Positions 3,631 to 51,395 of a stretch of 56,936 nucleotides of DNA are shown here, in pieces (positions within the stretch are counted from its first letter, which is position 1; each line of letters begins with the position of its first letter). The stretch is from the NCBI GenBank assembly GCA_964567825.1, contig CAZMNX010000003.1, positions 1-56,936 on the forward strand, read 5' to 3'. The DNA is from an uncultured Candidatus Saccharibacteria bacterium. GTDB lineage: Bacteria; Patescibacteriota; Minisyncoccia; Phycocordibacterales; GWA1-40-21. The notes beneath the pieces are model-generated. The model saw only the letters and a program-made list of their open reading frames with translations, searched no databases and was not told the DNA's origin. The position numbers were made by a program, and so were the translations under genes.

Positions 3631-3659
3631 TTGACGTCTAAGTATTTTTACTCTAGTAT
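3631..3659 (+). promoter_or_regulatory. sigma70-like promoter TTGACG-17-TAGTAT (island 1, gene a)
   Basis: -35 at 3631-3636 and -10 at 3654-3659, directly after the stop of the upstream gene. The leader is about 40 nt with CTGGAG before GTG 3703. Confidence 0.45.
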
Positions 3660-3702
3660 TAAATTTGGCTATTAGTCCTTCAACACTAACTGGAGTACAG
3701 CA

Positions 3703-4167
3703 GTGCAAAACACAGATCTTCCGTCGGTTGAAGCTTTCATCCACAGTCCGTGGAAGAAGCATGTCACGTTCGTTAAGCCTCAGGTGCGGGTGTGGAAGCC
3801 GGGTGTAGACTTTCCGGTGGGGATCGGTGGCCATGCCGTGCGAACGTTCCAAATGAACGGGGGACAGGCTACGCCATTTCACGTTCATGAGCGCCGCAAC
3901 AAGCTTTACGCTGTGTTGCGTACATTCGGCACGGTCGAGCTCACCATGATTCACGAGGGTCAAGTTGTCAATCATCTGCTGAGCCATCTCAAGCCGTTCT
4001 GCATGGTGCCGCCTGGCTGCCCGCACTTCCTGGTTTGTTTGCCGGTGAACAAGCCGCAGGAGTTCTGCGATCTCGCCGTCATCACGTCTAACCACGAAGA
4101 TAGCGATATCATCTGGGAAGCGGCAGCCGACGAGCTGGTGAGTCGCGTCAAGACGCCCGGTGTCTAG
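3703..4167 (+). CDS. cupin-fold protein, family unassigned (high-GC island 1)
   Basis: Partial cupin motifs: GGQATPFHVHERRNKLYAVLRTFGTVEL and MVPPGCPHFLV. Third codon positions are G/C rich. GTG start. Confidence 0.6.
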   Translation: MQNTDLPSVEAFIHSPWKKHVTFVKPQVRVWKPGVDFPVGIGGHAVRTFQMNGGQATPFHVHERRNKLYAVLRTFGTVELTMIHEGQVVNHLLSHLKPFCMVPPGCPHFLVCLPVNKPQEFCDLAVITSNHEDSDIIWEAAADELVSRVKTPGV

Positions 4168-4202
4168 TGCGCGCCACTTTAACCTCGAGTTCGGTGTAAT
4201 CA

Positions 4203-4238
4203 AGAGTCGGTTTTCCCCCACGGGAGAGCCGGCTCTTT
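4203..4238 (+). terminator. hairpin terminator between island-1 genes
   Basis: AGAGTCGG...CCGGCTCT stem (one G-U pair) followed by TTTAACTTT. Confidence 0.45.
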
Positions 4239-4257
4239 AACTTTAAAAATTATTTTA

Positions 4258-4286
4258 TTGACTTCTATGTCAAAAGCCTGTATAAT
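4258..4286 (+). promoter_or_regulatory. near-consensus sigma70 promoter TTGACT-17-TATAAT (island 1, gene b)
   Basis: It lies in an AT-rich 80-nt spacer. AGGGAGG sits 6 nt before the ATG at 4329. Confidence 0.6.
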
Positions 4287-4328
4287 CATAAAAGAGTTTG
4301 CTGTGCAGTAGTTCTTAGGGAGGACAGC

Positions 4329-4787
4329 ATGAAAACGGAAAGTTGTAAGGGTCTGACGGGAGCGGAGGTGGTGAAGCTGGGGTCGCTCTTTCTTCTCGCT
4401 TGTGTGATTGTTTTGGTCACCGTGCATTCGATGAACAATGGCAAGGGTGACCGCTACGTCGCCCCGCTCGAGGACATTCGACTGACCATGATGACGACGA
4501 ATGGCGTGACCGAAATCGGCTGGGTGCCCATGATCAGCCGGAGCTACGATCCGCTCTGCGGCGTCACGCACGTGGTGATCTCCATGGGCGCCACCAACGA
4601 TTCGAGGTTCTACCAGACGGCCAGGGTGTCCAGTCAGCGTAGCGGTTCTGTCGTTGTCACGCCGTTCTGGCGGGAGAATCACGAGAAGGGCTATATCGAA
4701 GTTTACGCCTACACTCGTGCCTTCCAAGGCCGGTCCGAGTTCTTCATCATGCAGGACGGCCTCGTCTACCGTGACGACCAGAAGTAG
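4329..4787 (+). CDS. N-terminally membrane-anchored hypothetical protein (high-GC island 1)
   Basis: Strong SD (AGGGAGG). TM segment LGSLFLLACVIVLVTV. No family recognised; the C-terminus EFFIMQDGLVYRDD faintly resembles DUF2950-type ends. Confidence 0.6.
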   Translation: MKTESCKGLTGAEVVKLGSLFLLACVIVLVTVHSMNNGKGDRYVAPLEDIRLTMMTTNGVTEIGWVPMISRSYDPLCGVTHVVISMGATNDSRFYQTARVSSQRSGSVVVTPFWRENHEKGYIEVYAYTRAFQGRSEFFIMQDGLVYRDDQK

Positions 4788-4811
4788 TTCTTGCGCGTCG
4801 CTTTACGCGAC

Positions 4812-4860
4812 AAAAAAGCCCCAATCAAACCCAGGCCTGGGTGCGATCGGGGCTTTTTCC
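4812..4860 (+). terminator. intrinsic terminator closing island 1
   Basis: AAGCCCCaATC...GATCGGGGCTT stem with an inner CCCAGGCCTGGG palindrome, followed by a TTTTT run. Confidence 0.6.
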
Positions 4861-4880
4861 TTTCTTGATTATTTAAAATC

Positions 4881-4889
4881 TGTTACAGT
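4881..4889 (+). promoter_or_regulatory. extended -10 TGTTACAGT, 9 nt before ATG (leaderless-type)
   Basis: TGn + TACAGT, a 9-nt gap, then the ATG at 4899. No SD. Confidence 0.45.
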
Positions 4890-4898
4890 TATTAAACT

Positions 4899-5237
4899 AT
4901 GCGTGTCTGGGATATACATCCAAAACATTTATGTCGGAAACATTTGCTGGCCGAGCATCGCGAGCTCCACGGCCTATGGAATATTTTGACTAAACATAAA
5001 GGCCAAGGTGGTTATTCCCATCACCCGGAAACTTTACGTTGGGTGGGGAAGACTCGCGCTCTTTTTGATCGGCATGAACTGTTGGTTAAAGAATTTATAC
5101 GTCGTGGTTACAATCACCACACTCCGCTTGATAAGCGTTTGGCTAAGGGTCGCGGTGGTCAAACTGTTTTTCTCAATACTCTTAAAGAACAAAAAGTGAT
5201 TCTCAAAAACAAACTCTGCGAGTGTTTACTTGATTAG
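4899..5237 (+). CDS. pyrimidine dimer DNA glycosylase / endonuclease V-like protein
   Basis: The N-terminus MRVWDIHPKHLCRKHLLAEHRELHGLWNIL is typical of the Pyr_excise family. Confidence 0.7.
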   Translation: MRVWDIHPKHLCRKHLLAEHRELHGLWNILTKHKGQGGYSHHPETLRWVGKTRALFDRHELLVKEFIRRGYNHHTPLDKRLAKGRGGQTVFLNTLKEQKVILKNKLCECLLD

Positions 5238-5263
5238 GACTAGTGGCCCCGATAATAAATTTT

Positions 5264-5272
5264 TGTTACACT
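5264..5272 (+). promoter_or_regulatory. extended -10 TGTTACACT, 7 nt before ATG (leaderless-type)
   Basis: TGn + TACACT, a 7-nt gap, then the ATG at 5280. Confidence 0.45.
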
Positions 5273-5279
5273 ATTAATA

Positions 5280-5660
5280 ATGAATAAACTTGATACAGAA
5301 AAAGAATTTTCGGTTATTAAAAGAGCCAAAAGTGTCGTTTACGCCAGTCGGGGAGTTTACGTTTTTTTAAAAACCACACCGAATGCCTGGATTCAGATTT
5401 TTGTGATAGTTTTGGTTGCTTTATTCGGTTTTTATCTCCGAATAAACAGCACGGACTGGCTCTCACTCATTATTGTTTGTGGTTTCGTTTTGGCCGCTGA
5501 AGCTTTCAATACAGCAATTGAGATTGATATCGATTTAACTTCACCCAATTATCATCCCTATGCTAGAGACACAAAAGACGTGGCCGCCGGTGCGGTTTTG
5601 ATTTCGGCCATTACGGCGATAATTGTCGGTATAATAGTTTTTGGTAAGTATTTGGTATAG
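5280..5660 (+). CDS. dgkA: diacylglycerol/undecaprenol kinase (DgkA family)
   Basis: Three TM segments. Motifs AAEAFNTAIE and ARDTKDVAAGAVL. Confidence 0.85.
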   Translation: MNKLDTEKEFSVIKRAKSVVYASRGVYVFLKTTPNAWIQIFVIVLVALFGFYLRINSTDWLSLIIVCGFVLAAEAFNTAIEIDIDLTSPNYHPYARDTKDVAAGAVLISAITAIIVGIIVFGKYLV

Positions 5661-5737
5661 GTCTTTTCCTTCCCTAAGGACAGATTTTCATGATAATGCT
5701 AGAATAGATACAGTTTATTATTTTAATTTATAATTTT

Positions 5738-6484
5738 ATGTATACAGTTTTAGGTATCATTATTTTTATTGCGGTCATAAGCATTCGTCAGATCAACCAA
5801 TATCAAAGAGGGGTGAAATTTACGCTCGGTAAATTTACTTCCGTGATGGAACCAGGTTGGAGACTCGTCCTGCCTATTATTCAAAGTTATCAAAAGGTGG
5901 ATGTTCGAATCAAAGCCGTAGATGTGCCTGATCAAAACGCCATCACTCGCGACAATGTGACAGTTAAAGTGAACGCTGTGATTTACTACAAAGTAAGCGA
6001 TGCGCAAAGGGCGATCATCGAAGTGGAAGATTTTCGTTATGCTATTTCCCAATATGCTCAGACGACGATGCGAAATATTGTGGGAGAAGTTACGCTTGAT
6101 GAATTGCTATCGAGCCGCGATAAGATTGCGGATAGAATCAGAGAAATTGTCGACAAAGAAACTGTGGCTTGGGGCCTTAAGGTGCAGAATGTGGAACTAA
6201 AGGATGTCAGTTTACCAGCTGACATGGAAAGAACAATCGGTAAGCAAGCTGAAGCGGAACGAGAAAAAAGGGCGGTCATCATCAATTCTGAAGGTGAGCT
6301 CGCGGCATCTGAAAATATTTCAAAAGCAGCCGAGATGCTATCTCGTACACCAGGCGCACTTCATTTGCGAACTCTGCAATCAATAAATGATATGGCTTCA
6401 GATCAAAGCAACACCGTGGTTTACATGGTTCCTGTGGAGGCCTTGAAAGCCCTCGAGGGTTTCGGCAACTTGATTAAGAAATAA
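5738..6484 (+). CDS. SPFH/band 7 (stomatin-like) membrane protein
   Basis: N-terminal TM segment, then a stomatin-like core (RIKAVDVPDQNAITRDNVTVKVNAVIYYKV...ELKDVSLP). Confidence 0.9.
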   Translation: MYTVLGIIIFIAVISIRQINQYQRGVKFTLGKFTSVMEPGWRLVLPIIQSYQKVDVRIKAVDVPDQNAITRDNVTVKVNAVIYYKVSDAQRAIIEVEDFRYAISQYAQTTMRNIVGEVTLDELLSSRDKIADRIREIVDKETVAWGLKVQNVELKDVSLPADMERTIGKQAEAEREKRAVIINSEGELAASENISKAAEMLSRTPGALHLRTLQSINDMASDQSNTVVYMVPVEALKALEGFGNLIKK

Positions 6485-6503: not shown

Positions 6504-6686
6504 ATGGACGAAATTAAAAATGAAAAGTGTGAGCATATAAATTTTGAACGGGAGGGGCTATGGGATGGAGTGAGTAAAGAGGGGAAGCCGATTGGTGGGC
6601 CGGAGATTCTTTGCTTGGATTGCCGACAGAAAGTGTGCCTGACTTGGGAAGAATTCAAAAGCGTAAGGCGCAACGAGTCGCGCTAG
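6504..6686 (+). CDS. small Cys/His-containing hypothetical protein (possible zinc ribbon)
   Basis: 60-aa ORF with CEH...CLDCRQKVC. A backbone-style -10 box sits 6 nt upstream. No family recognised. Confidence 0.4.
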   Translation: MDEIKNEKCEHINFEREGLWDGVSKEGKPIGGPEILCLDCRQKVCLTWEEFKSVRRNESR

Positions 6687-6718: not shown

Positions 6719-6748
6719 CATTGGCTGGTGTGGGGGCACTTTTTGGCG

Positions 6749-6757
6749 TGGTAGAAT
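6749..6757 (+). promoter_or_regulatory. extended -10 TGGTAGAAT, 8 nt before GTG (leaderless-type)
   Basis: TGn + TAGAAT, gggccgcc, then the GTG at 6766. Confidence 0.4.
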
Positions 6758-6765
6758 GGGCCGCC

Positions 6766-7191
6766 GTGAAAAATGACTTTGATCTATGGAACGAAGAGAA
6801 GAAAATTTTGAATAAGAATAAGAGGGACTTACTTTTTAAAGAGGGCGAGATCTGGTGGTGTTCGGTTGGCTTGAATGTAGGCGAGGAAGTCTATGGTAAG
6901 GGGAAATATTTTCGGAGACCAGTGATTATTTTAAAAAAGTTGTCACATAATTCTTGTGTGGTGATACCAACTACCACTCAGCCCAGACTAGGAACCTGGT
7001 ACCATCATTTAAACGTAATCGGAAAAGATCGCTGGGCTATGATGCATCAAATAAAGTTTATTTCAGCTAATAGGTTACACACTAGAGAGTCAGTCTTATT
7101 TCCAAATGAATTTTTTGAATTGAAAAAGTCCGTAGCGGTATTGCTCGGACTTAATCTTTGGTCACCGAGCGATGCTCGGATCAGTGGGTAA
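6766..7191 (+). CDS. PemK/MazF-family toxin-like protein
   Basis: GEIWWCSVGLNVGEEVYGKGKYFRRPVIILKK...CVVIPTTT matches the MazF/PemK fold signature. The start could be TTG 6721 or GTG 6766. Confidence 0.65.
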   Translation: MKNDFDLWNEEKKILNKNKRDLLFKEGEIWWCSVGLNVGEEVYGKGKYFRRPVIILKKLSHNSCVVIPTTTQPRLGTWYHHLNVIGKDRWAMMHQIKFISANRLHTRESVLFPNEFFELKKSVAVLLGLNLWSPSDARISG

Positions 7192-10200: not shown

Positions 10201-10564
10201 CAATACGGGGTTTGTAATAAAAACCTTCGAGGTTGGCCAGTGTCACCAATTTAATCAAATTTTTATAACCGTCTAAATCTTTGGCCAACAAAATTAAACG
10301 ACTGCGGCGATTATCTACTCCACCTTGTTTGTCTTTACGGGTGCGGGCGGCAACATACATATCAGCGCCGATAATTGGTTTGATCTCATTTTTTTTGCAG
10401 GTTTTATAAAACTCAATCGCGCCATACAAATTGGCATTGTCAGTTAAAGCCAAAGACGTCATTTCATTCTTCTTCGCCTCCTTCACCAAATCACTAATTT
10501 TCGGCAGGGCATTAAGCAGGGAATAGTGAGAATGGGTATGTAGGTGAATAAATTTCGACGGCAT
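7262..10564 (-). CDS. dnaE: DNA polymerase III alpha subunit
   Basis: 1100 aa. The PHP domain starts FIHLHTHSHYSLL, followed by polymerase core motifs and a C-terminal OB fold. Confidence 0.95.
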   Translation of the reverse strand: MPSKFIHLHTHSHYSLLNALPKISDLVKEAKKNEMTSLALTDNANLYGAIEFYKTCKKNEIKPIIGADMYVAARTRKDKQGGVDNRRSRLILLAKDLDGYKNLIKLVTLANLEGFYYKPRIDKELIEAHKFGLICISPSFSGATTQALKNGDLSEAKRLVAWYKEVYGEKNFFLELTHHPEIEGHEETMKKIVNLAKETNTPLVAAHDVYYLHPEDKKARDTLMLVNTNSDFSDRNSDGNEEDFSFINSERAEGLFKDTPEALENTLRIADMCELDLELGSWVFPDFKVESGLTGDEELKRLAYEGFKVRDLPQTKVYTDRLEYELKVIKDKGYSPYFLVVADLLRFAHENKILTNIRGSVAGSLTTYLTKITNVDPIDYKLPFERFLNPERPSAPDIDMDYADNRRDEVIEYAKKKYGNDKVAQIGTFGTMMARGSVKDVARAMGFPYTLGDRISKLIPMGAQGFPMTIDRALKDTPELKEMYEKEADVKTIIDMAKKVEGCARHISVHAAGVVMAPRPLTDFTPLQFDTKGEEKIITQYDMHAIEDAGLLKFDFLGIKNLAILASAVDLVKIIEDIDVDLENIPIDDKKTFEMLARGETTGLFQLNGQGMTKSLKDLKPSNIHDINVMVALYRPGPMDNIQEYIARKHGEKRTSYIHPKMKDFLDTTFGVLVYQDDLLMTAIEVAGYTWGEVDKFRKAIGKKIPEEMAKQHVKFVEGCVKNGGMTEAKAEALWKLFEPFQGYGFNKAHAASYGLVAYQTAYMKANFPAIYMSAVLTADAGDVEKIAEFIGDCKRMDIPVLPPNVNESFQDFTVVKAIFNSSTALTPSESPSPLNGVPNRSEDVLTVRGEDKIRFGLTTIKNFGEGIANTIIAERKKGGKFTSLSNFLDRIKDKNLNKKSLEALIKAGAMDEFGERGQMLANVENMLTYSKEASKQSENQDSLFGAYIPGLNTDVNNFKLQDAAPATATEKLNWERELLGLYLSGHPLDKFRKVIDEKNYKISNIKTGGKDGGALEDGKEVVVAGMIEDIRAIVTKKGDNMAFLKLSDFSDTLEVVVFPRTMTEFKSLLIKDKAVALKGKVSLRNGEISLIVDKVKELV
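7281..7289 (+). promoter_or_regulatory. perfect DnaA-box consensus TTATCCACA (inside the dnaE 3' end)
   Basis: Exact 9-mer, 26 nt from the inverted box at 7247-7255. Confidence 0.4.
8014..8087 (-). repeat. palindromic in-frame repeat element, copy A (inside dnaE)
   Basis: Reverse strand: CCGTCAGAAtcaccCTCTCCGcTTAACGGAGTACCTAATCgCTCCGAGgatgTTCTGACGG. A 34-nt core matches 32/34 to the truB copy, and the terminal inverted repeats pair with each other. Confidence 0.75.
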
Positions 10565-10607
10565 AATTAAGGCTATTATAGCTTATAAATTAAGGCTAAA
10601 ATAGTGC

Positions 10608-10636
10608 TTGACTTTTAGATTTCGTTATGCTATACT
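10608..10636 (+). promoter_or_regulatory. sigma70-like promoter TTGACT-17-TATACT (island 2)
   Basis: -35 at 10608-10613 and -10 at 10631-10636. The leader of about 70 nt is GC-rich, with small hairpins and GAGAAGAGA before GTG 10711. Confidence 0.55.
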
Positions 10637-10710
10637 GCTTAGACGGATTGTAGTTGACCGAGGTGGTCGAAATCGCGGCTCTAATCAGCCGCAGAAAGCG
10701 AGAAGAGACG

Positions 10711-11493
10711 GTGAAGAGTTCATTGAAAGGTTTGATGTTGGTAGCGGCGGTCGTTCTGTGCGGTCAGTTGGTGTTCGCGGGTGCGAGCAATGACTGGGTG
10801 CGTGGCAGCTTCACGGCGTCGGTTATGTCGCAGAACATCCACCCCACGCTCAGCATGGTCAAGTACCCCGATCCCCAGGTTCAGGGTGATCTGTGGCTGG
10901 ATTTGCCAGCCGGGTACGCGCTGCAGTTGCAGGAGTACGCTGGCCTGAATGGCGGAGGATTCGATAACGACAAGGGCGATGAATTTGACCTCGGGGTCTG
11001 GAAGAAATTCGCGCTCGACGCGAGCACGTATCTGAAGCTTCGGCTGAAGTACGTGGATAGCTTCCCGGTTTCGGAGGTGGAGGGAGATGATCCCATCGCC
11101 TACGACGTGTTTATCGGTCGGTCGTTTAACCACGATGGGCCGAACACGGTGACGGCCGAGCTGCGTGCCGAATACTGGCACTATATTCGCGAGGGGAGCG
11201 AAGGTATGGTCTCGGTCATACCCAGTTTGTCGCACGAATATCGGGCCAACGCCCGGTTCGCGGTCTACGACCAGCTCGTTCTTCAGTGGAACAACGAGAT
11301 GGACGCCTTCGGCGAGTTGCTGTCGGCGCAAGCGAAAGCTGGCGTGAAGGTCAAGCTGACGAACAACCTGAATTGGAACGTCGTCGACGTCTGGGGGATC
11401 CTCCCCTTGACCAAGGTCGCAGATGGCGACCCGCGGGCCAAGAACGACGACGGCGCCGTAGCGGTTGCGACCGCTCTGGCACTTCGTCTCTAG
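10711..11493 (+). CDS. secreted beta-rich protein, possibly outer-membrane beta-barrel-like (high-GC island 2)
   Basis: Signal peptide MKSSLKGLMLVAAVVLCGQLVFAGA-SN. Alternating hydrophobic/polar stretches run through to the C-terminus. The start could be GTG 10711 or ATG 10735. No family recognised. Confidence 0.6.
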   Translation: MKSSLKGLMLVAAVVLCGQLVFAGASNDWVRGSFTASVMSQNIHPTLSMVKYPDPQVQGDLWLDLPAGYALQLQEYAGLNGGGFDNDKGDEFDLGVWKKFALDASTYLKLRLKYVDSFPVSEVEGDDPIAYDVFIGRSFNHDGPNTVTAELRAEYWHYIREGSEGMVSVIPSLSHEYRANARFAVYDQLVLQWNNEMDAFGELLSAQAKAGVKVKLTNNLNWNVVDVWGILPLTKVADGDPRAKNDDGAVAVATALALRL

Positions 11494-11552
11494 TCGGATG
11501 ATTCCGGCGGAGTAAGACTTAAGTACAAAATCGAAAAAAGGTGAGAGGGAAA

Positions 11553-11583
11553 GGGCTGCAACGTTCACGTTGCGGCCCTTTTA
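11553..11583. terminator. GC-rich hairpin terminator (possibly bidirectional) closing island 2
   Basis: GGGCTGCAACG-ttca-CGTTGCGGCCC followed by TTTT. It lies between convergent genes. Confidence 0.65.
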
Positions 11584-11589
11584 AATTGT

Positions 11590-12357: not shown

Positions 12358-12366
12358 AATGTTTAA

Positions 12367-13083: not shown

Positions 13084-13137
13084 ATTGAGTATATAATAAC
13101 ATTTTCTCGTTCTACTTTCACTTTTTGCTAGTGATTG

Positions 13138-13146
13138 TGGTACAAT
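13138..13146 (+). promoter_or_regulatory. extended -10 TGGTACAAT, 10 nt before ATG (leaderless-type)
   Basis: TGn + TACAAT, a 10-nt gap, then the ATG at 13157. Confidence 0.45.
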
Positions 13147-13156
13147 AAGACTGTAT

Positions 13157-13696: not shown

Positions 13697-13700
13697 TTTT

Positions 13701-13709
13701 TTATCCACA
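13701..13709 (+). promoter_or_regulatory. perfect DnaA-box consensus TTATCCACA
   Basis: Exact 9-mer, 25 nt upstream of the helicase -10 box. Confidence 0.45.
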
Positions 13710-13731
13710 GTTTCTTTTTAAAGTGGCACGG

Positions 13732-13740: not shown

Positions 13741-13746
13741 GGTCTC

Positions 13747-15435
13747 ATGACTCAAGCTGAAGCCCTCGATATTCTTAAACTAGGACACAATGTTTTTTTG
13801 ACCGGCCCGGCGGGGAGTGGGAAGACTTTTGTGTTAAACGAATATATTAAATTTTTACGGGATAATTTTGTGGACGTGGGCATCACGGCTAGCACCGGTA
13901 TCGCCGCGACACATATGGGCGGCACGACCATTCATTCTTGGACTGGTATGGGAATTAAGGACACCTTAACTAAAATTGATTTAGAAGAATTGCAAACCCG
14001 AAAATATTTGAAAGATCGTTTTGCTCGAACTCAGGTTTTAGTGATAGATGAAGTGTCTATGCTCCACCACTTTCGTTTAGATTTGATTGACGAAATCTGT
14101 CGGCATATGAAAAATAATGATTCGTCTTTTGGTGGTATGCAAGTCATCTTGTGTGGAGATTTCTTTCAGTTGCCACCGATCGCTCGTTTCGGTGAGCCGG
14201 CCGCGCAGTTTGCTTACGAATCGGTCGTTTGGGAAAACGCTAAATTTAAGGTTTGCTATTTAGAAGAACAGCACCGTCAGACTGATTCAGCTTTCCTAAA
14301 AGTTTTAAACGAAATCAGAAAGAATCGATTGTCAGATGAAGGAATGAATCATTTAATGTCCAGACATACAAAAAATCGAAAAGTGGAGGCGGAACAAATT
14401 GAACCAACCTTGTTGTACACTCACAATATTGACGTTGATAATATTAATCAAAAAGAATTAGAGAAACTGCATGGTCAACAGCGCGAATATGAAATGGAGA
14501 GTAAGGGTCGGCAACCACTAGTGGATTTACTAAAAAAGAGTTGTTTGGCGCCCGAAGTCTTAAAATTAAAAGTCGGGGCCAAGGTGATGTTTGTGAAAAA
14601 TAATTTTGAGGAGGGTTATGTGAATGGAACTCTGGGAAAAATTGTAGGTTTTGATCAAGACGGCCCAGTGGTTCAAATAAAGGGCGGCAAAAGTATTCAC
14701 GTTAAGCTGGCCAACTGGATGATCGAAGAAGAGGGGAAACCTAAGGCCACGATCGGCCAATATCCTTTACGTCTAGCCTGGGCAATTACTGTTCACAAAA
14801 GCCAGGGTATGAGCTTGGATGCTATCGAAGTTGATTTATCAAAATCCTTTGAAAAAGGGATGGGTTATGTGGCTTTATCTCGTGTCCGTTCACTGGCGGG
14901 ACTTAATTTGCTTGGCCTAAATGATCTGGCTGTTCAAGTACGGCCAGAGGTTTTGGAATTTGATGAAGAATTAAAAAAGCTTTCCAATAAGCATTTAGCG
15001 GAGATGCATAATTTAAGTGAAACTGATAAAAAGCAGAAACAAAAAAAGTTTTTACAAAAGATTTCACCCGAGCGAACGGCTACGGGTAAGATTAAGAAAA
15101 TAAAAGTTTCGCCGATTGAGGAAACTCGCAAAATGCTTGAAGCGGGCATGAGCCTGAATGAGATGGCTAATTTACGAGGCGTAAAAATTGAAACTATTTT
15201 AGATCATCTAGAGAAATTATTGGTACAAGACCAAACTCTTGATATTAGGCAACTAGAAAGAGAAATTTCAACAGTGAAGTTTAAAAAAATTTATCGAGCC
15301 TTTAATGATATTTACGGCGACAATCGGGAATTACGTTTGGCGCCAGTGATGAAAATTTTGGGTGGTGAAAATTCCGGTTTTATTTTCCCCGAGCTAAGAC
15401 TTGTGCGACTTTTTTTGAAAAAGCGAGGGATGTAG
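13747..15435 (+). CDS. PIF1/RecD-like superfamily 1 DNA helicase with a C-terminal HTH-like tail
   Basis: Walker A GPAGSGKT, VLVIDEVSM, GDFFQLPPI, and ITVHKSQGMS. Confidence 0.85.
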   Translation: MTQAEALDILKLGHNVFLTGPAGSGKTFVLNEYIKFLRDNFVDVGITASTGIAATHMGGTTIHSWTGMGIKDTLTKIDLEELQTRKYLKDRFARTQVLVIDEVSMLHHFRLDLIDEICRHMKNNDSSFGGMQVILCGDFFQLPPIARFGEPAAQFAYESVVWENAKFKVCYLEEQHRQTDSAFLKVLNEIRKNRLSDEGMNHLMSRHTKNRKVEAEQIEPTLLYTHNIDVDNINQKELEKLHGQQREYEMESKGRQPLVDLLKKSCLAPEVLKLKVGAKVMFVKNNFEEGYVNGTLGKIVGFDQDGPVVQIKGGKSIHVKLANWMIEEEGKPKATIGQYPLRLAWAITVHKSQGMSLDAIEVDLSKSFEKGMGYVALSRVRSLAGLNLLGLNDLAVQVRPEVLEFDEELKKLSNKHLAEMHNLSETDKKQKQKKFLQKISPERTATGKIKKIKVSPIEETRKMLEAGMSLNEMANLRGVKIETILDHLEKLLVQDQTLDIRQLEREISTVKFKKIYRAFNDIYGDNRELRLAPVMKILGGENSGFIFPELRLVRLFLKKRGM

Positions 15436-15525
15436 ACAAAGTTAAATTTTAGTGTATTCTATTTTCAGATGTTCTTGCCATTTTTGGCTGTCAGTGTTCG
15501 TCACCTCAAAGGATGAAAGGCCAGT

Positions 15526-15984
15526 ATGAACTTTATCGCTGGTTGGATCTGCGCCGTGATCGGTTACGTCGTTTCGGTTTTCGGTCTGCATTTCGTTTAT
15601 CGCGAGTTTGCGGCCGATGGTAGCTGGCTGCTGAGCTTTGCGATGGCCGTGCCGATGACCGCTCTGGTACTGGGGGTTTGGACGCTCCACGTCTGCGAGG
15701 AGGGCCAGGGCTTCCTCGGCCTGGAGCGTGGTCGGTGCTGGCAGTTGCTTCGGCGTCTGACCGTCTTCGTTCTCTTGCCGGTGCTTGAGCATGCTGCCTG
15801 GCTTTATGCTCGAGCAAGTGGTTGGACAGCGGTGGCGGCGATGTTGGACGAACTCCACTACGTCATTCTGCTTACGGTCGCCATACTCTACTGCGCCATT
15901 CGGCTCATGTTTCATGTTCGCCGGCCGGTGAACGTAGAGGTGGGTAGAACGTCGCGAGTCAACATGGGGATCTTCGGAGATTGA
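15526..15984 (+). CDS. small integral membrane protein, about 4 TM (high-GC island 3)
   Basis: There are four hydrophobic segments on this strand. The antisense ORFs are hydrophilic and rich in P, R, H and Q. AAAGGA/GAAAGG lies upstream of the ATG. No family recognised. Confidence 0.55.
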   Translation: MNFIAGWICAVIGYVVSVFGLHFVYREFAADGSWLLSFAMAVPMTALVLGVWTLHVCEEGQGFLGLERGRCWQLLRRLTVFVLLPVLEHAAWLYARASGWTAVAAMLDELHYVILLTVAILYCAIRLMFHVRRPVNVEVGRTSRVNMGIFGD

Positions 15985-15998
15985 TCGGTGGAAGGGTT

Positions 15999-16056
15999 CG
16001 GGGCTGTTGGGAAAGGTGTCTACGGACACCACCCAGCAGCCCCGCGTTGTTTATTT
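15999..16056 (+). terminator. GC-rich compound hairpin terminator closing island 3
   Basis: CGGGGCTGTTGGG...CCCAGCAGCCCCG with an inner GGTGTC-tacg-GACACC, followed by TTGTTTATTT. Confidence 0.5.
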
Positions 16057-19949: not shown

Positions 19950-19958
19950 AATAAAAGG

Positions 19959-44561: not shown

Positions 44562-44603
44562 AAAAAACGGTACCAGAAAGTTTGCAGTCCTCCCTGATAC
44601 CGT
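44562..44603 (-). terminator. intrinsic terminator closing island 4
   Basis: Reverse strand: ACGGTATCAG...CTGGTACCGT followed by TTTTTT. Confidence 0.55.
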
Positions 44604-44624
44604 TCATGGCGCCGTTGGCGCTGG

Positions 44625-45095
44625 TCAGTGCTTGGCAAGCTTTTCTATGTAGCCCTCGGGTGGTGCCCACTTCTCGAGGTAGAGACCCTCCCCGTCGTTC
44701 TTGACAAGATAGAGTTCGTCCGCCTCGAAGCTGAAACCGACTTCACCGTCGGTGTCATTGATCGACATCACGAATCTAGCCATCGTCGGCGCTTCGGTCA
44801 GGCGATAGCACAAACCCATCGCCCGATCGGCCACTTCTGTGTTGGCCAAACAGTAGACGATGTCGCCGGTCTGATAGACCGTATCGATTTCCGCCGGCTG
44901 ACCGATCGTGGTCTTGGCCGTGTTTTCGACGGCCGACGCCACTGCCTTCTTGAGCTTGACTGCGCACCGCTCTTCGGTCTTACCGCGGACATCGACAGCG
45001 ACGAACACGAGTATCCCGATCATCAGTGCGGCCAGAACCACACCGATTATTTCCTTGGACAGATTCTTCCCATCCCACTGCTTCAGACCTTCCAT
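44625..45095 (-). CDS. N-terminally membrane-anchored hypothetical protein (high-GC island 4)
   Basis: AAGGAG lies 6 nt before the ATG at 45095 (MEGLKQW...). TM segment IIGVVLAALMIGILVFVAV, then a soluble domain. No family recognised. Confidence 0.55.
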   Translation of the reverse strand: MEGLKQWDGKNLSKEIIGVVLAALMIGILVFVAVDVRGKTEERCAVKLKKAVASAVENTAKTTIGQPAEIDTVYQTGDIVYCLANTEVADRAMGLCYRLTEAPTMARFVMSINDTDGEVGFSFEADELYLVKNDGEGLYLEKWAPPEGYIEKLAKH

Positions 45096-45148
45096 AACCG
45101 CTCCTTTTTGTTTGTCTCCAGGGTTCATCCCAAGAGACTCTGGGCTAT

Positions 45149-45176
45149 ACTCTACTTATTTTTTCTCTCTTGTCAA
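45149..45176 (-). promoter_or_regulatory. sigma70-like promoter TTGACA-16-TAGAGT (island 4)
   Basis: On the reverse strand, the -35 abuts the stop codon of the upstream exonuclease gene. Confidence 0.4.
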
Positions 45177-47096: not shown

Positions 47097-47837
47097 ATGC
47101 CAAAAACGAAAGTCTTAAAATTATATAAGATAGTAGGTGAAACGCCACTCGAATGTCTTAGTCGGTTTCGTAAAGCCAATTCAGAATATAAGCATGAGAA
47201 AATGACTTATGCTGGACGTCTCGATCCAATGGCCGAAGGGGTGCTTTTGGTGCTGGTTGGGGAAGAATGTAAGAATAAAGATAAGTATTTAGCTTTTGAT
47301 AAAGAATATGAAATGGATGTTTTGTTTGGTTTCGCGACTGATACTTATGATCTGCTTGGTTTGGTTAAAAAACAATCGACCAGAATATTCTCTCCGTTTA
47401 ACGGAGTACCTAATCACTCCGAGAAAATTCTGGTCGATTTTTTTGTTAAAAAATTTAAACAAAAGTACCCACCCTATTCTTCTCGTTATTTTGCTAAGGC
47501 AAGAAGTGGAAAATTAGTCAACGATGAAATTTTAAGTAAGGAAGTAGAAATTTACAGCATTAAACTTTTGAAAAATAAAAATATTTCTAAAAAGTCTTTA
47601 CATAACTATATTATTAAATCAGTAAATAAGGTGAAGGGGGATTTTCGTCAAAAGAAAATTTTGGCTAAATGGAAGTTGATATTGGACAAGAGTAAGCTGA
47701 AAAAGTTTCCAGTTATATCGCTTAAAATAAAGTGTTCTAGTGGCACCTATATGCGCTCCTTAGCCTATAATATTGGAAACGAGGTTGGGGTGCCCTCATC
47801 TGTTTTACGGCTTAAAAGAACGAGAATTTATCAATAA
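47097..47837 (+). CDS. truB: tRNA pseudouridine(55) synthase
   Basis: YAGRLDPMAEGVLLVLVGE (catalytic Asp), YPPYSS, and CSSGTYMRSL. Confidence 0.85.
   Translation: MPKTKVLKLYKIVGETPLECLSRFRKANSEYKHEKMTYAGRLDPMAEGVLLVLVGEECKNKDKYLAFDKEYEMDVLFGFATDTYDLLGLVKKQSTRIFSPFNGVPNHSEKILVDFFVKKFKQKYPPYSSRYFAKARSGKLVNDEILSKEVEIYSIKLLKNKNISKKSLHNYIIKSVNKVKGDFRQKKILAKWKLILDKSKLKKFPVISLKIKCSSGTYMRSLAYNIGNEVGVPSSVLRLKRTRIYQ
47375..47438 (+). repeat. palindromic in-frame repeat element, copy B (inside truB)
   Basis: ATCGACCAGAATattCTCTCCGtTTAACGGAGTACCTAATCaCTCCGAGaaaATTCTGGTCGAT. It has 12-bp perfect terminal inverted repeats and the same core as the dnaE copy. Confidence 0.75.
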
Positions 47838-47849
47838 AATAGGGTCATT

Positions 47850-47858
47850 TTATCCACT
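47850..47858 (+). promoter_or_regulatory. DnaA-box-like motif TTATCCACT (8/9), 11 nt upstream of the RRM-gene -35
   Basis: Its placement matches that of the perfect box at the csp promoter. Confidence 0.35.
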
Positions 47859-47869
47859 TTTAGCTTACC

Positions 47870-47898
47870 TTGAGTTTGGGTCATTACTGTGCTAAACT
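47870..47898 (+). promoter_or_regulatory. promoter TTGAGT-17-TAAACT with TGn extension
   Basis: -35 at 47870-47875, TGc at 47890-47892, and -10 at 47893-47898. The leader to the ATG at 47968 is about 65 nt. Confidence 0.45.
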
Positions 47899-47967
47899 CT
47901 TTTTGTCGTAGATGTTAGTGTTAGGTCGCTTCTATAGATAAATTTAATCAAAAATATTTTCAAATAA

Positions 47968-48288
47968 ATGGCAAAGAAATTATACGTCGGAAACTTGTCT
48001 TACAACACTACCGATGCCTCTCTAAAGGCCGCTTTTGCTCCTTTGGGCGAAGTTGAATCAGCGAATGTTATTACTGATAAGATGACCGGACGTTCTCGCG
48101 GTTTTGGTTTCGTGAACATGGTAAATGATGATGAAGCTCAAAAGGCTATCGATACTATGAACGGAGCAGATCTAGAAGGACGAAAGCTTACCGTTAACGA
48201 GGCAAAACCTCTCTCTGAGAGACCTCCAAGACGAAATTTTGATAACCGCGGTGGCGGTGATCGAATGGGTGGTGGTTCAAGATACTAG
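47968..48288 (+). CDS. RRM-type RNA-binding protein with a Gly/Arg-rich tail
   Basis: RNP-2 KLYVGNL and RNP-1 RGFGFVNM. Confidence 0.9.
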   Translation: MAKKLYVGNLSYNTTDASLKAAFAPLGEVESANVITDKMTGRSRGFGFVNMVNDDEAQKAIDTMNGADLEGRKLTVNEAKPLSERPPRRNFDNRGGGDRMGGGSRY

Positions 48289-48350
48289 TACTCTTGTCCT
48301 GATGCTTTCCTAAGCAGAAGGGCGAATATCAAAAATTCACTAAAACAAAA

Positions 48351-48382
48351 AAGCAGGCTCGATCTTTCGGGCTTGCTTTTTT
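48351..48382 (+). terminator. intrinsic terminator of the RRM-protein gene
   Basis: AAGCAGGCT...GGGCTTGCTT stem (with G-U pairs) followed by TTTTTT. Confidence 0.5.
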
Positions 48383-48400
48383 GCTGTATTATGGTAGTAT
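48373..48400 (+). promoter_or_regulatory. candidate promoter TTGCTT-16-TGgTAGTAT (island 5)
   Basis: The -35 overlaps the terminator 3' arm. The extended -10 is at 48392-48400. Confidence 0.35.
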
Positions 48401-48458
48401 TTTTTTGGAAGTTCACTGAAGTTTTGTGTTGGTTAAAAGGAATACAAGAAAGAATCCC

Positions 48459-49028
48459 ATGATCACAGCTGGTGTTTGGGTGATGACAAAGCCACTCGTG
48501 ACCGCCCACCTCGATAATAGCCGGGGAAAGCCCAATCCGATGCACTATCGGTTGGCCGGGAAGGCGATGACCCATGAAATTGTCGTCAACAACATTGGGG
48601 AAGACTTCAATGTGTCGACGCGTGGGCCAGCCAAGATTGGCGCATTTGGGCTCGAGAAATACGGTCTGGATCTGGCCGGCGTTCGGCAGGTGATCCTGAA
48701 GCATCGTGGCCCGCCACTGTATCAGGCTGAGCATGAAGTGATGAGAGAGATGCCGGCCGCGGAGCTGAGGAGTGTCCATCATTTCGGGATGTCTCGGCTG
48801 AAGCATCCGGGGATGAAAGGGCGGCGCTGTCGGGGGGTGAAGGCGGTCTGTCTGAGCTCGCTGGTGAGGTGTCAGCTGAGCCGGACCAGGTCGGTCTGGG
48901 TACACCCCGTTCTGCACATCTTCATGGATGAGGTCAGCGGCGAACTCGAAAACCACCACGAAGTAGATCCGAACATGGTTCCGGGGGCGCTCATGTCACC
49001 CGAGGACATTGTTCTGTTCCGTATGTGA
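48459..49028 (+). CDS. hypothetical protein (high-GC island 5); strand and frame uncertain
   Basis: This is the plus-strand ORF bounded by an upstream promoter candidate and a downstream terminator. The N-terminal two thirds look protein-like. The C-terminal third is R/C/H-rich and odd, and an alternative frame in that part also stays open. The SD is weak. Confidence 0.35.
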   Translation: MITAGVWVMTKPLVTAHLDNSRGKPNPMHYRLAGKAMTHEIVVNNIGEDFNVSTRGPAKIGAFGLEKYGLDLAGVRQVILKHRGPPLYQAEHEVMREMPAAELRSVHHFGMSRLKHPGMKGRRCRGVKAVCLSSLVRCQLSRTRSVWVHPVLHIFMDEVSGELENHHEVDPNMVPGALMSPEDIVLFRM

Positions 49029-49048
49029 TTTAGGAGGACACATACGGC

Positions 49049-49082
49049 AAAGGCCGCGCACTTTCGGGTGTCGCGGCCTTTC
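49049..49082. terminator. GC-rich hairpin terminator closing island 5 (convergent with typA)
   Basis: AAGGCCGCGcAC-tttcgg-GTgtCGCGGCCTT followed by T. Confidence 0.55.
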
Positions 49083-49101
49083 CAATTTAAAATTATTTTT
49101 T

Positions 49102-50883
49102 CTATCTCAGGGCCTTAGCGCGATCATTCTTAGTCAAATATTTTTTTCGTAAACGAACGGAGGTGGGGGTGACTTCTAAATAATCATCATGACCCATAAT
49201 TTCCAAACCTTTTTCAATATCTAGTTTTTGGGGTGGAACTAGGAAGATCGATTCATCGGAACCAGAAGCGCGCATGTTGGTTAATTGTTTACCCTTGGTT
49301 GGATTAACATCAAGATCATCACCCTTGGTGACATTTCCAATAATCATTCCCTCATAAACTTCAACACCTGGTTCGATATAAAGTACGCCACGCTCCTGAA
49401 GATTCCAGAGAGCAAAGGCCAAACATTTTCCAGCCATCATCGAAACCATCGCGCCAAATTCTTGACGCTGAATTTCACCAGCATAAGGTTTGAAACCAAT
49501 AAAGCGGCTACATAAAATTCCTTCACCGCGGGTATCAATAACAAACATTCCTTTAAAGCCTAGTAAGCCACGAGTGGGAATTTCGAAAATCATTCGAACT
49601 TGGCCATCCTTAGTTTTCATATCTTGCATTAAGCCACGGCGTTTACCAAGTTTTTCAATCACCACTCCCGAAACAGCCTCTGGTACATCGATTGTCACTT
49701 CTTCATACGGTTCACTTTTTACACCATCGATATCCTTCACAATTGCTTGAGGCTGAGAGACCTGTAATTCAAAACCCTCACGGCGCATATTTTCAATTAA
49801 AATCGAAACATGTAATTCGCCACGACCAAAAACTTTCATATTATCACCGGAAAAGTCTAATTTAAGACCAACATTAATTTCCAATTCTTTTTCTAGTCGT
49901 TCACGAATCTGGCGACCAGTCACAAATTTTCCTTCTCGGCCAGCAAAGGGGGAATCGTTCACTAAAAAATTCAAGGAAATAGTTGGCTCGTCGATATTGA
50001 TCGAAGGAAGGGCTTCGTGGGTTTCGTCTTCACAAATTGTTTCACCGATATAAGCGTCAGTAAGACCGGCAAACATGACAATATCACCCGCCACGGCTTC
50101 GGTAATTTCCTTTCGGGCAATACCCTCAAAAGTAAAAAGTTTAGTAATTTTAAAAGCTCGACTTTCGCCGGAAGGAGTTTTAGCAAAAATTCTTTGATTG
50201 GCCTTTATTTTTCCATTATAAATTCTGGCGATCGCCAAGCGGCCCATGAAATTATCATAACCTAAGTTAAAGATCTGAGCTGTTAAATGAGAGTTAACTT
50301 GTTCATCAGTGGCGGCGGGTGGAACTTTTTCTAAAATTAAATCAAGTAGGGGTGTTAGATCCTTTTGTTCATCACCCAAATTTTTCATCGCCACGCCTTT
50401 TCGGCCAATAGCGTAAATAGTCGGGAAGTCCAATTGTTCATTGTTGGCACCTAATTCCATGAATAATTCTAAGACTTCTTCGTGAGCCTGTTCTGGTCGC
50501 GCCGCACTTTTATCAATTTTATTTATTACTACAATTGGCTTCAAACCAAGTTCAAGAGATTTTTTCAAAACGAAGCGAGTTTGAGGCATCGGACCCTCTT
50601 GAGCATCCACCACCAAAAGCACAGTATCAATAGAACGCAGTACTCGTTCAACTTCAGAACCAAAGTCGGCATGCCCAGGGGTGTCCACAATATTAATTTT
50701 AGTTCCCTTATAGGAAATTGAGGTGTTTTTAGCGTAAATAGTAATACCGCGCTCTTGCTCGAGTTTGTTTGAGTCCATCGAGACCCCTTCTTCGGCCGCA
50801 CCGGTTTGCTTCATAATAGCGTCGGTTAGGGTAGTTTTGCCATGGTCCACATGGGCGATGATTGCAATGTTTCGAATTTCCAT
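49102..50883 (-). CDS. typA: translational GTPase TypA/BipA
   Basis: [19 protein letters not shown], and an EF-G-like domain order without domain IV. I chose the ATG at 50883, not the ORF-track start at 50940. Confidence 0.92.
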
Positions 50884-50892
50884 AAGTTTTAA

Positions 50893-50921
50893 AATATACA
50901 TTAAAATAAGGCTTTTTGCAA
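50893..50921 (-). promoter_or_regulatory. promoter TTGCAA-17-TATATT, 9 nt before the typA ATG (leaderless-type)
   Basis: The reverse strand reads TTGCAAaaagccttattttaatgTATATTttaaaacttATG. Confidence 0.5.
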
Positions 50922-50925
50922 GGGT

Positions 50926-50954
50926 TTGACTTTTAGTCATATTAAGTAGAAGAT
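50926..50954 (+). promoter_or_regulatory. weak candidate promoter TTGACT-17-GAAGAT (island 6)
   Basis: Good -35 but a poor -10. GGAAGGG lies 6 nt before the ATG at 51003. Confidence 0.3.
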
Positions 50955-51002
50955 AAAATTAGGAAGTGGTTCTTTGGCTTTTTAAGCGCGGAAGGGAACC
51001 CT

Positions 51003-51335
51003 ATGGCAGATAACCCGATTGAGTATTTGACCGGGGATCGTGATTTGGCCATCGTTGTGGACGAACGAAAGCTGTATGGAATTTACTCCATGTTCAGCCT
51101 CGTCCAGGTTGTAAATTATCGATGGACACGATACGAAAGACCTAACGAGGATATCGTTATAGGCTACATTGGCCGAACCAGGGAGCTCATATCGATTAGC
51201 GGGCTCTTGCGGATTTTGGGTCGATCGACTGGTCCGGAAACTGTTGCCGCCTGCTCGACGGTGTCCGTCGGCGGGGTCACAACTTATTGGGGCTACGTGC
51301 ACAATATGAAAATGCGGATTGTTATGTACAAATGA
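51003..51335 (+). CDS. small soluble hypothetical protein (high-GC island 6)
   Basis: SD GGAAGGG. The 110-aa sequence has normal protein-like composition, and a terminator follows. No family recognised. Confidence 0.5.
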   Translation: MADNPIEYLTGDRDLAIVVDERKLYGIYSMFSLVQVVNYRWTRYERPNEDIVIGYIGRTRELISISGLLRILGRSTGPETVAACSTVSVGGVTTYWGYVHNMKMRIVMYK

Positions 51336-51358
51336 GGAAGGGTAAAAAGAAAGGAGGT

Positions 51359-51395
51359 GGGCGTTGCTGAATGGCAGCGCTCTATTTCTTTTTTA
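51359..51395 (+). terminator. hairpin terminator closing island 6
   Basis: GGGCGTTGC-tgaatg-GCAGCGCTC followed by TATTTCTTTTTT. It overlaps the last Lys codons of the convergent repeat-protein gene. Confidence 0.45.

Follow-up and report, generated by a model that had tools for sequence, protein, structure and literature searches.

Seven GC-rich, mostly Shine-Dalgarno-led single-gene cassettes in an AT-rich, apparently leaderless Paceibacteria chromosome fragment

Phage morons are independent promoter-gene-terminator units with a GC content unlike that of their neighbours, and they constitute extra DNA relative to related genomes (PMC3594210). Morons of the HK97/HK022 type are single small genes, often encoding a membrane or surface protein, that lie between conserved syntenic genes and are absent from relatives (PMC3594210). 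The minimal mobile elements of Neisseria, as outlined in a later article that cites their description, are alternative genes occupying one slot without mobility genes (Saunders and Snyder 2002, cited in PMC1797815). Integron cassettes are small, mostly orphan units with a single open reading frame (ORF) from a large shared pool, usually promoterless and attC-ended, and arrayed beside intI and attI. In Patescibacteria, where most individual gene transfers are reported to occur between Patescibacteria, composition-deviant DNA in classical genomic islands and islets has been attributed to horizontal transfer (PMC12455944). Here we describe six GC-rich islands in a 56.9-kb stretch of contig CAZMNX010000003.1 (the whole stretch analysed, hereafter the window), which are predicted to hold seven complete monocistronic expression units in intergenic slots, each comprising promoter, leader, ORF and terminator. 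We refer to these units as cassettes I1a and I1b, which share island 1, and I2 to I6.

The window (40% GC) appears to be a chromosome fragment of a Candidate Phyla Radiation (CPR) bacterium of the Paceibacteria, as judged from the labels on the closest DnaE sequences (58-78% identity), which belong to metagenome-assembled genomes (MAGs) labelled Paceibacteria, Paceibacterota, Zambryskibacteria, Taylorbacteria or, more broadly, Patescibacteria, Parcubacteria or 'Saccharibacteria'. Its backbone encodes ApbE, an RnfD-like reductase, DnaE, Pif1, RpoB, RpoC, DnaG and RpoD, together with an AddA-like helicase-nuclease, UppP, HisRS, TruB, BipA, phosphoketolase and acetate kinase, and includes a standard sigma-70 factor.

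Sliding-window analysis revealed abrupt rises above the window mean of 0.40 at 3714-4822 (GC 0.55), 10668-11580 (0.58), 15524-16029 (0.58), 44605-45096 (0.57) and 48493-49044 (0.58), with a weaker rise (0.49-0.52) at ~51000-51350 corresponding to island 6. GC content at third codon positions (GC3) follows the same pattern, reaching 0.70 in the sense ORF of I1a, 0.78 in I1b, 0.76 in I2, 0.69 in I3, 0.70 in I4, 0.69 in I5 and 0.58 in I6, against 0.358 +/- 0.043 (maximum 0.47) in 31 backbone ORFs; the island values thus lie 5-10 standard deviations above the backbone, with island 6 the weakest, while second-position GC is about 0.4. The islands are spread over 48 kb as single-gene units of 0.45-1.2 kb, and their neighbours are housekeeping genes, among them those for the RnfD-like protein, DnaE, Pif1, DUF2914, UppP, an RRM protein and BipA. 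An initial annotation, made from the sequence alone, had described six abrupt GC islands lying between housekeeping genes, and both the composition scans and the annotated flanks agree with it. Cassette leaders and 3' untranslated regions (UTRs) are also enriched (GC 0.45-0.52, compared with 0.36 in backbone intergenic DNA), so the shift belongs to the whole transcribed unit and not to its codons alone.

Translation-start signals set the cassettes apart from the backbone. Cassette leaders are 28-74 nt long, and a Shine-Dalgarno (SD) core precedes five of the seven island genes, as opposed to 4 of 31 in the backbone (Fisher p = 0.004). Many backbone genes instead carry a TATAAT-like or TATACT box 5-14 nt 5' of the ATG, mostly without an SD; examples are the starts of the minus-strand gene at 7262-10564 and those at 16089, 40688, 51382 and 51989. 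This placement of the box indicates leaderless transcripts, and the core genes of the window look leaderless. A survey by eye of dnaE starts in ~75 Paceibacteria (including loci L002-L081) with 31-58% GC, in which start positions are approximate, found a -10-like box a few bases upstream and no SD in most of them. The 3' end of the 16S rRNA is absent from the window and from the fetched loci. These results bear out the claim of the initial annotation that most cassettes have a leader and a recognisable SD while backbone genes lack one and are often leaderless.

Each of the seven units terminates in a hairpin that folds at about -26 to -41 kcal/mol and precedes a T-rich run, as expected from the GC-rich stem-loop terminators first proposed for them. 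Scored against the sigma-70 consensus, the promoters of I1b (11/12), I2 (10/12, with an extended -10) and I1a (9/12) are near-consensus; I4 has a perfect -35 and a poor -10, and the promoter calls of I3, I5 and I6 are weak. The original description had already flagged the promoters of I3 and I6 as weak. Cassette promoters and terminators are of the same style as those of the backbone. The initial interpretation is partly supported: the cassettes do look foreign in both composition and architecture, and they are self-contained units in intergenic slots. An autonomous promoter-to-terminator unit can be accommodated between core genes while leaving them undisturbed. The features of the cassettes are as follows.

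I1a, 3630..4228, plus strand: promoter TTGACG-17-TAGTAT (3631-3659) and a 43-nt leader with GGAG.
I1a ORF, 3703-4167, plus strand: 154 aa, predicted cupin; terminator hairpin at ~4202-4237, -26.8 kcal/mol.
I1b, 4252..4862, plus strand: promoter TTGACT-17-TATAAT (4258-4286) and SD AGGGAGG.
I1b ORF, 4329-4787, plus strand: 152 aa with a single predicted N-terminal anchor; terminator at 4813-4858.
I2, 10608..11582, plus strand: promoter TTGACT-17-(TG)TATACT (10608-10636) and a 74-nt leader.
I2 ORF, 10711 (GTG) to 11493, plus strand: predicted signal peptide and all-beta body; the longest ORF runs from TTG 10654.
I2 3'UTR, plus strand: ~90 nt, conserved, ending in the terminator at 11550-11581.
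I3, 15433..16056, plus strand: weak promoter TAGACA-16-TATTCT (15433-15460) and a 65-nt leader with AAGGA.
I3 ORF, 15526-15984, plus strand: 152 aa, predicted multi-pass membrane protein; terminator at 15999-16044, -40.6 kcal/mol.
I4, 44562..45176, minus strand: -35 TTGACA at 45171-45176, SD AAGGAG and terminator at 44566-44604.
I4 ORF, 45095-44625, minus strand: 156 aa with a predicted N-terminal anchor; the longest ORF runs from 45128.
I5, 48373..49082, plus strand: weak promoter, a 59-nt leader with no clear SD, and terminator at ~49049-49078, -26.1 kcal/mol.
I5 ORF, 48459-49028, plus strand: 189 aa, soluble, no function assigned.
I6, 50941..51395, plus strand: the weakest cassette, with an uncertain promoter, SD GGAAGGG and GC of ~0.50.
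I6 ORF, 51003-51335, plus strand: 110 aa, soluble, no function assigned; terminator at 51348-51394 (-25.6 kcal/mol), overlapping the 3' end of a convergent 190-aa gene.

Homologues and public gene calls were used to correct three start codons. The start of I2 is probably GTG 10711 rather than TTG 10654, that of I4 probably ATG 45095, giving the 156-aa product of the NCBI gene call, and that of I5 probably ATG 48459 (189 aa). The -35 region of the I1a promoter, ATTGACGTCTAAGT, resembles that of I1b, ATTGACTTCTATGT (GTTGACTTCTAAGT in the related contig L084 described below). Between the dnaE start and the I2 promoter, positions 10565-10604 contain a tandem 17-nt repeat, AATTAAGGCTATTATAG / AATTAAGGCTAAAATAG; the repeat holds the -10 box of dnaE (TATAAT) on the minus strand, and the dnaE promoter may therefore be duplicated.

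Several of the islands also occur in separate assemblies. The window matches Logan contigs of runs SRR12261223 and SRR12261225 with 100% identity over 3225-5347, 9063-14607 and 47395-50587, stretches that cross both junctions of island 1 (L095 and L096, including I1a), island 2 (L001) and island 5 (L094, 47395-50587), and I2 and I4 are also present on JGI contigs. The possibility of an assembly or construction artefact, which the initial annotation had raised, is refuted by these separately assembled contigs. At its dnaE end, L001 carries an AT-richer dnaE allele that is 21% divergent over 8838-9062 (225 bp), beyond which 5.5 kb are 100% identical; either a recombination mosaic or an assembler's joining of relatives that co-occur could account for this switch. 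The window's own dnaE has a GC3 of 0.53-0.61 over ~1.5 kb (7565-9064), compared with 0.29-0.46 in the orthologues of L084 and L002.

The islands are coding, as indicated by codon periodicity and by ratios of non-synonymous to synonymous divergence (dN/dS) below 0.3. Alignable homologues exist for three cassettes, with dN/dS values of 0.29 (I1b), 0.19 (I2) and 0.25 (I4), against 0.03-0.17 in flanking core genes; I1b, I2 and I4 are under purifying selection that is several-fold weaker than that acting on their core neighbours. Rfam returned no island match, either at gathering thresholds or at E <= 0.1, and structured RNA as the cause of the GC islands is ruled out by this null result together with the codon periodicity and dN/dS values. 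Opposite every island ORF, and in register with its sense codons, lies a long antisense ORF that covers most or all of it (for example 10720-11568 and 3598-4221, both on the minus strand). TTA, CTA and TCA codons occur 3 times in the island ORFs against 17.8 expected under a simple position-specific composition model, and third-position A is 0.05-0.17, so that the antisense ORFs most simply reflect avoidance of A-ending codons rather than overlapping genes.

To place the cassettes among related genomes, we compared the window with L084, a 78.9-kb ENA contig that is 70-82% identical to it at the nucleotide level and syntenic from the RnfD-like gene to DUF2914, and with L002, the closest genome by DnaE (78%). 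The I1b cassette is found at the same position in L084 (9924-10529), where it is 81.7% identical in nucleotide sequence, retains promoter, AGGGAGG SD and terminator, and has a GC content of 0.53 against ~0.38 in its flanks. Synonymous divergence (dS) between the two I1b genes is 0.58, 3-5 times lower than in the flanking genes, which are saturated at 1.75-2.9; the lower value indicates that the ancestry of the cassette is more recent than that of the genomes. I1a is absent from L084, in which the RnfD-like stop codon is followed by the I1b cassette ~25 bp on. The slot between Pif1 and DUF2914 holds I3 in the window, is empty (16 bp) in L002, and in L084 contains a different GC-rich ORF for a multi-pass membrane protein, 20% identical to I3 (E = 0.002 in a single pairwise comparison).

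The content of the dnaE-Pif1 interval also differs among the window, L084 and L002. L002 has only 57 bp between DnaE and Pif1 and so lacks I2, both methyltransferases and the pilin-like gene; I2 is likewise absent from L084. L084 also has a ~350-bp GC-rich stretch (15500-15850) without an evident ORF, between dnaE and a low-GC ORF; it holds the tRNA-like T-arm sequence GGTTCAAGTCCCAC, returned nothing with ARAGORN or Rfam, and may be an undescribed structured RNA. In L082 the I2 homologue neighbours the same methyltransferase as I2 does in the window, and in L083 and one ENA contig the homologue is divergent from dnaE. These homologues are again GC-rich islands, and the I2 promoter (CTTGACTTT...TGCTATACT) and ~90-nt 3'UTR are conserved among them. 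The 3'UTR with its terminator (window 11494-11589; L082 10766-10860) is far better conserved than the I2 protein (~53% identity), and may be a terminator that works in both directions and also serves the convergent methyltransferase, or else a small RNA or other regulatory element. L082 further contains two paralogous genes for GC-rich secreted beta-proteins, at 10001-10765 and 13100-13915, with 24% identity and near-identical promoters (CTTGACTTTTT.G.TGAAAGGTGCTATACTTAT), which indicates that the whole cassette was duplicated, promoter included.

In L086, an I4 homologue (P0017, 49% identity) converges on UppP just as I4 does in the window, with a GC content of 0.52 against 0.39 in its flank, and relatives of I1a are GC-rich within the low-GC backbones of three further CPR-like contigs. 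On these comparisons, I1b, I2 and I4 are syntenic in related lineages, and their occurrence at the same positions in related low-GC genomes indicates that these cassettes predate the strain. I1a and I3 appear strain- or lineage-specific, as I5 and I6 possibly are, and among the sequences compared only I1a and I3 provide demonstrated presence/absence differences. The cassettes thus seem to sit in variable slots, with families that recur as GC-rich islands in other genomes. Several independent insertions, as initially proposed, are consistent with the presence/absence of I1a and I3 and not with the homologues of I1b, I2 and I4 at the same positions in relatives. The converse possibility that the islands are conserved core genes of a low-GC lineage holds by half: the lineage has conserved three of the genes, but these do not belong to the core and are still GC-rich in relatives.

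Similar islands occur well beyond the window. In 1.37 Mb of DnaE-centred Paceibacteria loci we identified ~25 further GC-rich islands, and among the two dozen inspected most contain one dominant ORF and share the build seen in the window, a GC-rich ORF with a hairpin terminator behind it and, in front, a TTGACA/TATAAT-type promoter and a leader tens of nucleotides long with a strong SD. In the public gene calls of five related contigs, 6 of 9 high-GC3 genes have a strong SD compared with 1 of 54 low-GC3 genes (p = 8e-6), and the two high-GC3 genes without an SD core look like miscalled starts. Codon usage of the window islands correlates with that of non-homologous islands from other genomes (r = 0.82) and with dnaE of GC-rich Paceibacteria (r = 0.64), as opposed to r = -0.27 with their own backbone; I6 is only weakly island-like (r = 0.36). 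The cassette pattern is more general than the initial annotation had it. The notion of six recent independent insertions by an unknown mechanism is weakened. In L088, a CPR-like contig with a 36-37% GC backbone, four GC-rich genes are clustered at 2118-6450, encoding an ABC transporter (GC3 0.63), two orphans (GC3 0.84 and 0.68) and an I1a-family cupin, and the cluster adjoins genes for a LAGLIDADG endonuclease and a tyrosine integrase. This cluster shows that larger, annotated genes can belong to the GC-rich class, which may at times move together with mobility genes.

Homology searches with the seven island proteins yielded few relatives. None matches Pfam, with the I1a family giving only a generic cupin, and all-against-all BLASTP revealed no relatedness among the seven. 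In an exhaustive search of 1.84 billion representative proteins, I3, I5 and I6 retrieved only themselves, I1b three relatives, I4 two and I1a ~44 clusters; I1a retrieved only itself from a word-indexed homologue database, and I2 has 7 relatives at 48-55% identity. Searches with tblastn found no match in 50,697 phage or 72,556 plasmid records, PHROG gave no island match better than E = 0.033, PADLOC gave none, and a scan of IMG/VR viral contigs, run for the I2 family, found no relatives. The cassettes thus comprise three small families found almost only in CPR-like contigs, three ORFans and one cupin.

Four of the seven products are predicted envelope proteins: a secreted beta-rich protein (I2), two N-anchored proteins (I1b and I4) and a multi-pass protein (I3). 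I1b has one hydrophobic segment (residues 9-38) and, by eye, a possibly pilin-like G|LTGAEV motif; in I3, a 19-residue hydropathy scan detects three hydrophobic regions and about four helices were counted by eye. I1a itself scores below the Pfam threshold, although 24 of 40 members of its family match Cupin_2, with H60, H62 and H108 invariant or nearly so. Its AlphaFold model has a predicted local distance difference test (pLDDT) score of 87.5 and matches PDB cupin structures at E ~1e-6 without singling out a specific enzyme, and I1a is accordingly modelled as a cupin with a double-stranded beta-helix and the metal-binding motifs HxH...E and ...H. For I2, a signal peptide and an all-beta body in a low-confidence structure model (pLDDT 50), a C-terminal Phe in 6 of 8 family members and a weak match of the L082 paralogue to Gcw_chp tentatively suggest an outer-membrane-type beta-barrel; profile searches against PDB sequences found nothing, and those against Pfam and NCBIfam nothing significant. 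CPR cells have a single membrane, in which an outer-membrane-type barrel would be odd. The composition of the product set given by the initial annotation (a beta-rich signal-peptide protein, two N-anchored proteins, a membrane protein, a cupin and two unknowns) is upheld, with its count of four transmembrane segments matching the count by eye.

No integrase or transposase was found in Pfam scans of the larger window ORFs (those above ~100 aa other than a 2891-aa ORF), and repeat scans detected no direct or terminal inverted repeats shared among the island ends. There is no tRNA junction at the islands, the only tRNA of the window lying far from them at 56863-56936, and no attC-like element, the 3' ends being ordinary terminator hairpins without common sequence. 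Within the ORFs and repeats scanned, this is as first noted, and no shared boundary motif emerged. Imperfect 13-nt inverted repeats lie near both ends of I1a (3600-3612/4202-4214), I1b (4282-4294/4860-4872) and I3 (15439-15451/16076-16088), and the 10-nt direct repeat TTTTAGTCAT / TTTTAGTAAT is found at both ends of island 6 (50931-50940/51391-51400); these repeats are AT-rich and mutually unrelated, and hence probably due to chance.

In relation to the described systems, the cassettes resemble HK97/HK022-type morons as single small genes with their own promoter and terminator (weak promoters in I3, I5 and I6) and deviant GC, but they sit in a cellular chromosome rather than a phage or prophage, yielded no kin among phage protein families, and are mostly SD-led against a leaderless backbone. 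With the minimal mobile elements of Neisseria, to the extent that the citing article describes them, they share an alternative gene or no gene in the same slot, as seen for the I3 slot and for I1a, and the absence of integrase, transposase and terminal repeats from the ORFs and ends scanned; the organism, moreover, probably takes up DNA, with a pilin-like gene at 13157-13696 in the window. They differ in that exchange by transformation and flank recombination would be a conjecture for the cassettes, with indirect support from the low dS of I1b and possibly the dnaE mosaic of L001; in that the comparison here is between lineages only 70-82% identical in nucleotide sequence rather than between strains; and in that uniform foreign composition and a common expression build belong to the cassettes and not to those elements. 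Like integron cassettes they are small, mostly orphan single-ORF units that would come from a large shared pool; unlike them they are scattered rather than arrayed at an intI gene, carry their own promoter and terminator, and have no attC at the 3' end. They share composition-deviant DNA with classical genomic islands and islets, and differ in being single-gene units without a tRNA or tmRNA site, integrase or flanking direct repeats, whose GC-richness persists in diverged homologues. Our literature searches found no report of SD-led, GC-rich cassettes in a leaderless CPR genome, and the cassettes form a coherent class, GC-rich, SD-led and self-contained within a leaderless, AT-rich CPR genome, that is new to the literature searched.

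Three further features of the window lie outside the islands. The 739-bp intergenic region 5' of rpoB (19950-20688), possibly a leader or a small RNA, contains small ORFs; on its minus strand, 20108-20433 matches the Rfam cspA thermoregulator below threshold (28.6 bits, with a gathering score of 78; E = 0.0015). The 2891-aa ORF (31362-40037) is of backbone-like composition. A MazF/PemK-like toxin gene lies at 6721-7191, with a possible antitoxin ORF upstream (6504-6686), in a locally GC-skewed stretch.

Our preferred account, to which we give about even chances, is that the cassettes are accessory genes comparable to morons or minimal mobile elements, which stem from a GC-rich gene pool with SD-led translation and are swapped through recombination. 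Under this model, the cassettes would belong to a gene pool common to Paceibacteria and would enter, leave and be replaced at slots by recombination following DNA uptake, without a dedicated integrase, much as minimal mobile elements do in Neisseria. Since flank recombination of that kind would suffice, the unrecognised acquisition mechanism suggested by the initial annotation is not required. The envelope products, which evolve several-fold faster than core genes, would, judging by topology and fold, likely constitute a variable repertoire for the cell surface or for host contact. Import from a pool is supported by the presence/absence differences, by the recurrence of the cassette build in other Paceibacteria and the codon usage shared with their non-homologous islands, by the low dS of I1b, by the lower GC3 of the orthologues in L083, L084 and L086 (0.55-0.64), as partial amelioration would give, and by an I1b-family member on an SD-using contig of 51% GC, in which the composition of the gene matches its surroundings.

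Several observations weigh against this account. The searches identified no donor lineage or reservoir, and in five of the six homologue contexts with measured composition the backbone is low in GC and the homologue is again a GC-rich island. GC-rich Paceibacteria are not obvious donors, because their dnaE also appears leaderless and C rather than G prevails at their third codon positions. When I2 of the window is compared with its L082 orthologue, identity at fourfold-degenerate sites is 0.40 against 0.37 expected at saturation, with dS above 2, and yet fourfold-site GC is 0.85 and 0.82 in the two genomes. Such retention of GC at saturation is unexpected under vertical descent with neutral amelioration, and the pool model would need repeated allele replacement to explain it. 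The one candidate trace of flank recombination, the dnaE mosaic of L001, could be an assembly join, and cassette function is predicted only from topology and fold.

In the main rival explanation, the cassettes would be resident genes, specific to the lineage and inherited vertically, and the high GC of the whole transcribed unit would be actively maintained. Possible causes would be GC-biased gene conversion at surface loci that evolve fast and are prone to recombination, or selection on mRNA or translation in an SD-dependent, rare-codon regime. The I2 orthologues that keep their GC at dS above 2 do so with the same neighbour, promoter and 3'UTR in two low-GC genomes, members of the I1a family just 28-38% identical are GC-rich (GC3 0.55-0.70) in four low-GC contexts, and the SD is conserved between orthologues with saturated synonymous sites. 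The raised GC of leaders and 3'UTRs, moreover, fits a regional process such as biased conversion, and the 1.5-kb dnaE tract of raised GC3 adjoins the islands. On the other hand, the sharp boundaries of the islands coincide with indels relative to relatives, the dS of I1b below that of its flanks indicates transfer, the clearly lower GC3 of the L083, L084 and L086 orthologues looks like amelioration, and three of the seven genes are without any relatives. The effect size (fourfold-site GC of ~0.8 vs ~0.35) also far exceeds, to our knowledge, what has been reported for biased gene conversion in bacteria. We regard maintained GC as possible but less probable than import from a pool, which we favour; the two are not mutually exclusive. 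An extended version, in which the genome would hold two gene classes, an AT-rich, leaderless and SD-less core and GC-rich, SD-dependent cassettes whose GC is actively maintained, at the extreme by host-matched translation, is speculative, and we consider it somewhat less probable still.

A link to the host is improbable. The cassettes might have been captured from GC-rich hosts, or might encode effectors made in the host or for it and tailored to host-like signals (GC-rich codons, a canonical SD, a consensus promoter and a terminator), loosely as T-DNA genes carry host-type expression signals. They do use an SD and GC-rich codons that the organism's own genes avoid, and the I2 family resembles an outer-membrane-type beta-barrel, albeit in a structure model of low confidence (pLDDT 50); known hosts of Patescibacteria are, in addition, reported to be GC-rich, with codon usage complementary between host and parasite (2026 preprint, doi 10.64898/2026.06.21.733656). 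Against this, no homologue was found in a context attributable to a non-CPR organism, most public matches being without a taxon label, and every inspected context looks CPR-like except for one short 51%-GC contig lacking a taxon. Promoters and terminators are in the style of a backbone that has a standard sigma-70 factor, and there is no sign of nucleic-acid export. The host-derived gene set envisaged at the outset consequently lacks homology support.

Still less probable is an origin as phage morons or as remnants of degraded prophages or other mobile elements. An own promoter and terminator, deviant GC and extra DNA relative to relatives do fit the definition of a moron (PMC3594210), but the backbone is cellular (DnaE, RpoB, RpoC, RpoD, DnaG, HisRS, BipA), neither an integrase, among the ORFs scanned, nor att-like repeats were found, and the islands have no match in PHROGs, in the 50,697 phage records or, for the I2 family, in viral contigs. 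An assembly chimera, contamination or constructed sequence has in its favour nothing but the abrupt composition switches and the orphan genes, and can be dismissed given identical contigs across the junctions from two other sequencing runs and JGI assemblies, and homologous GC-rich cassettes at the same positions in genomes from other samples.

Much of bacterial diversity falls within the CPR, or Patescibacteria, whose members live as epibionts with very small genomes, and little is known of how their host-contact surfaces vary. The combination of a GC jump, an SD leader and a hairpin terminator within a leaderless, AT-rich genome provides a recognisable signature of accessory genes, and thousands of MAGs could be mined with it for exchangeable gene pools. 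That diverged homologues stay GC-rich makes amelioration, biased conversion and selection on composition testable against one another, and a small genome in which leaderless and SD-led initiation occur side by side offers a natural system for studying how translation modes are partitioned. Should the reading of two gene classes with maintained GC prove true, GC-richness in these genomes would not be a fading mark of foreign origin.

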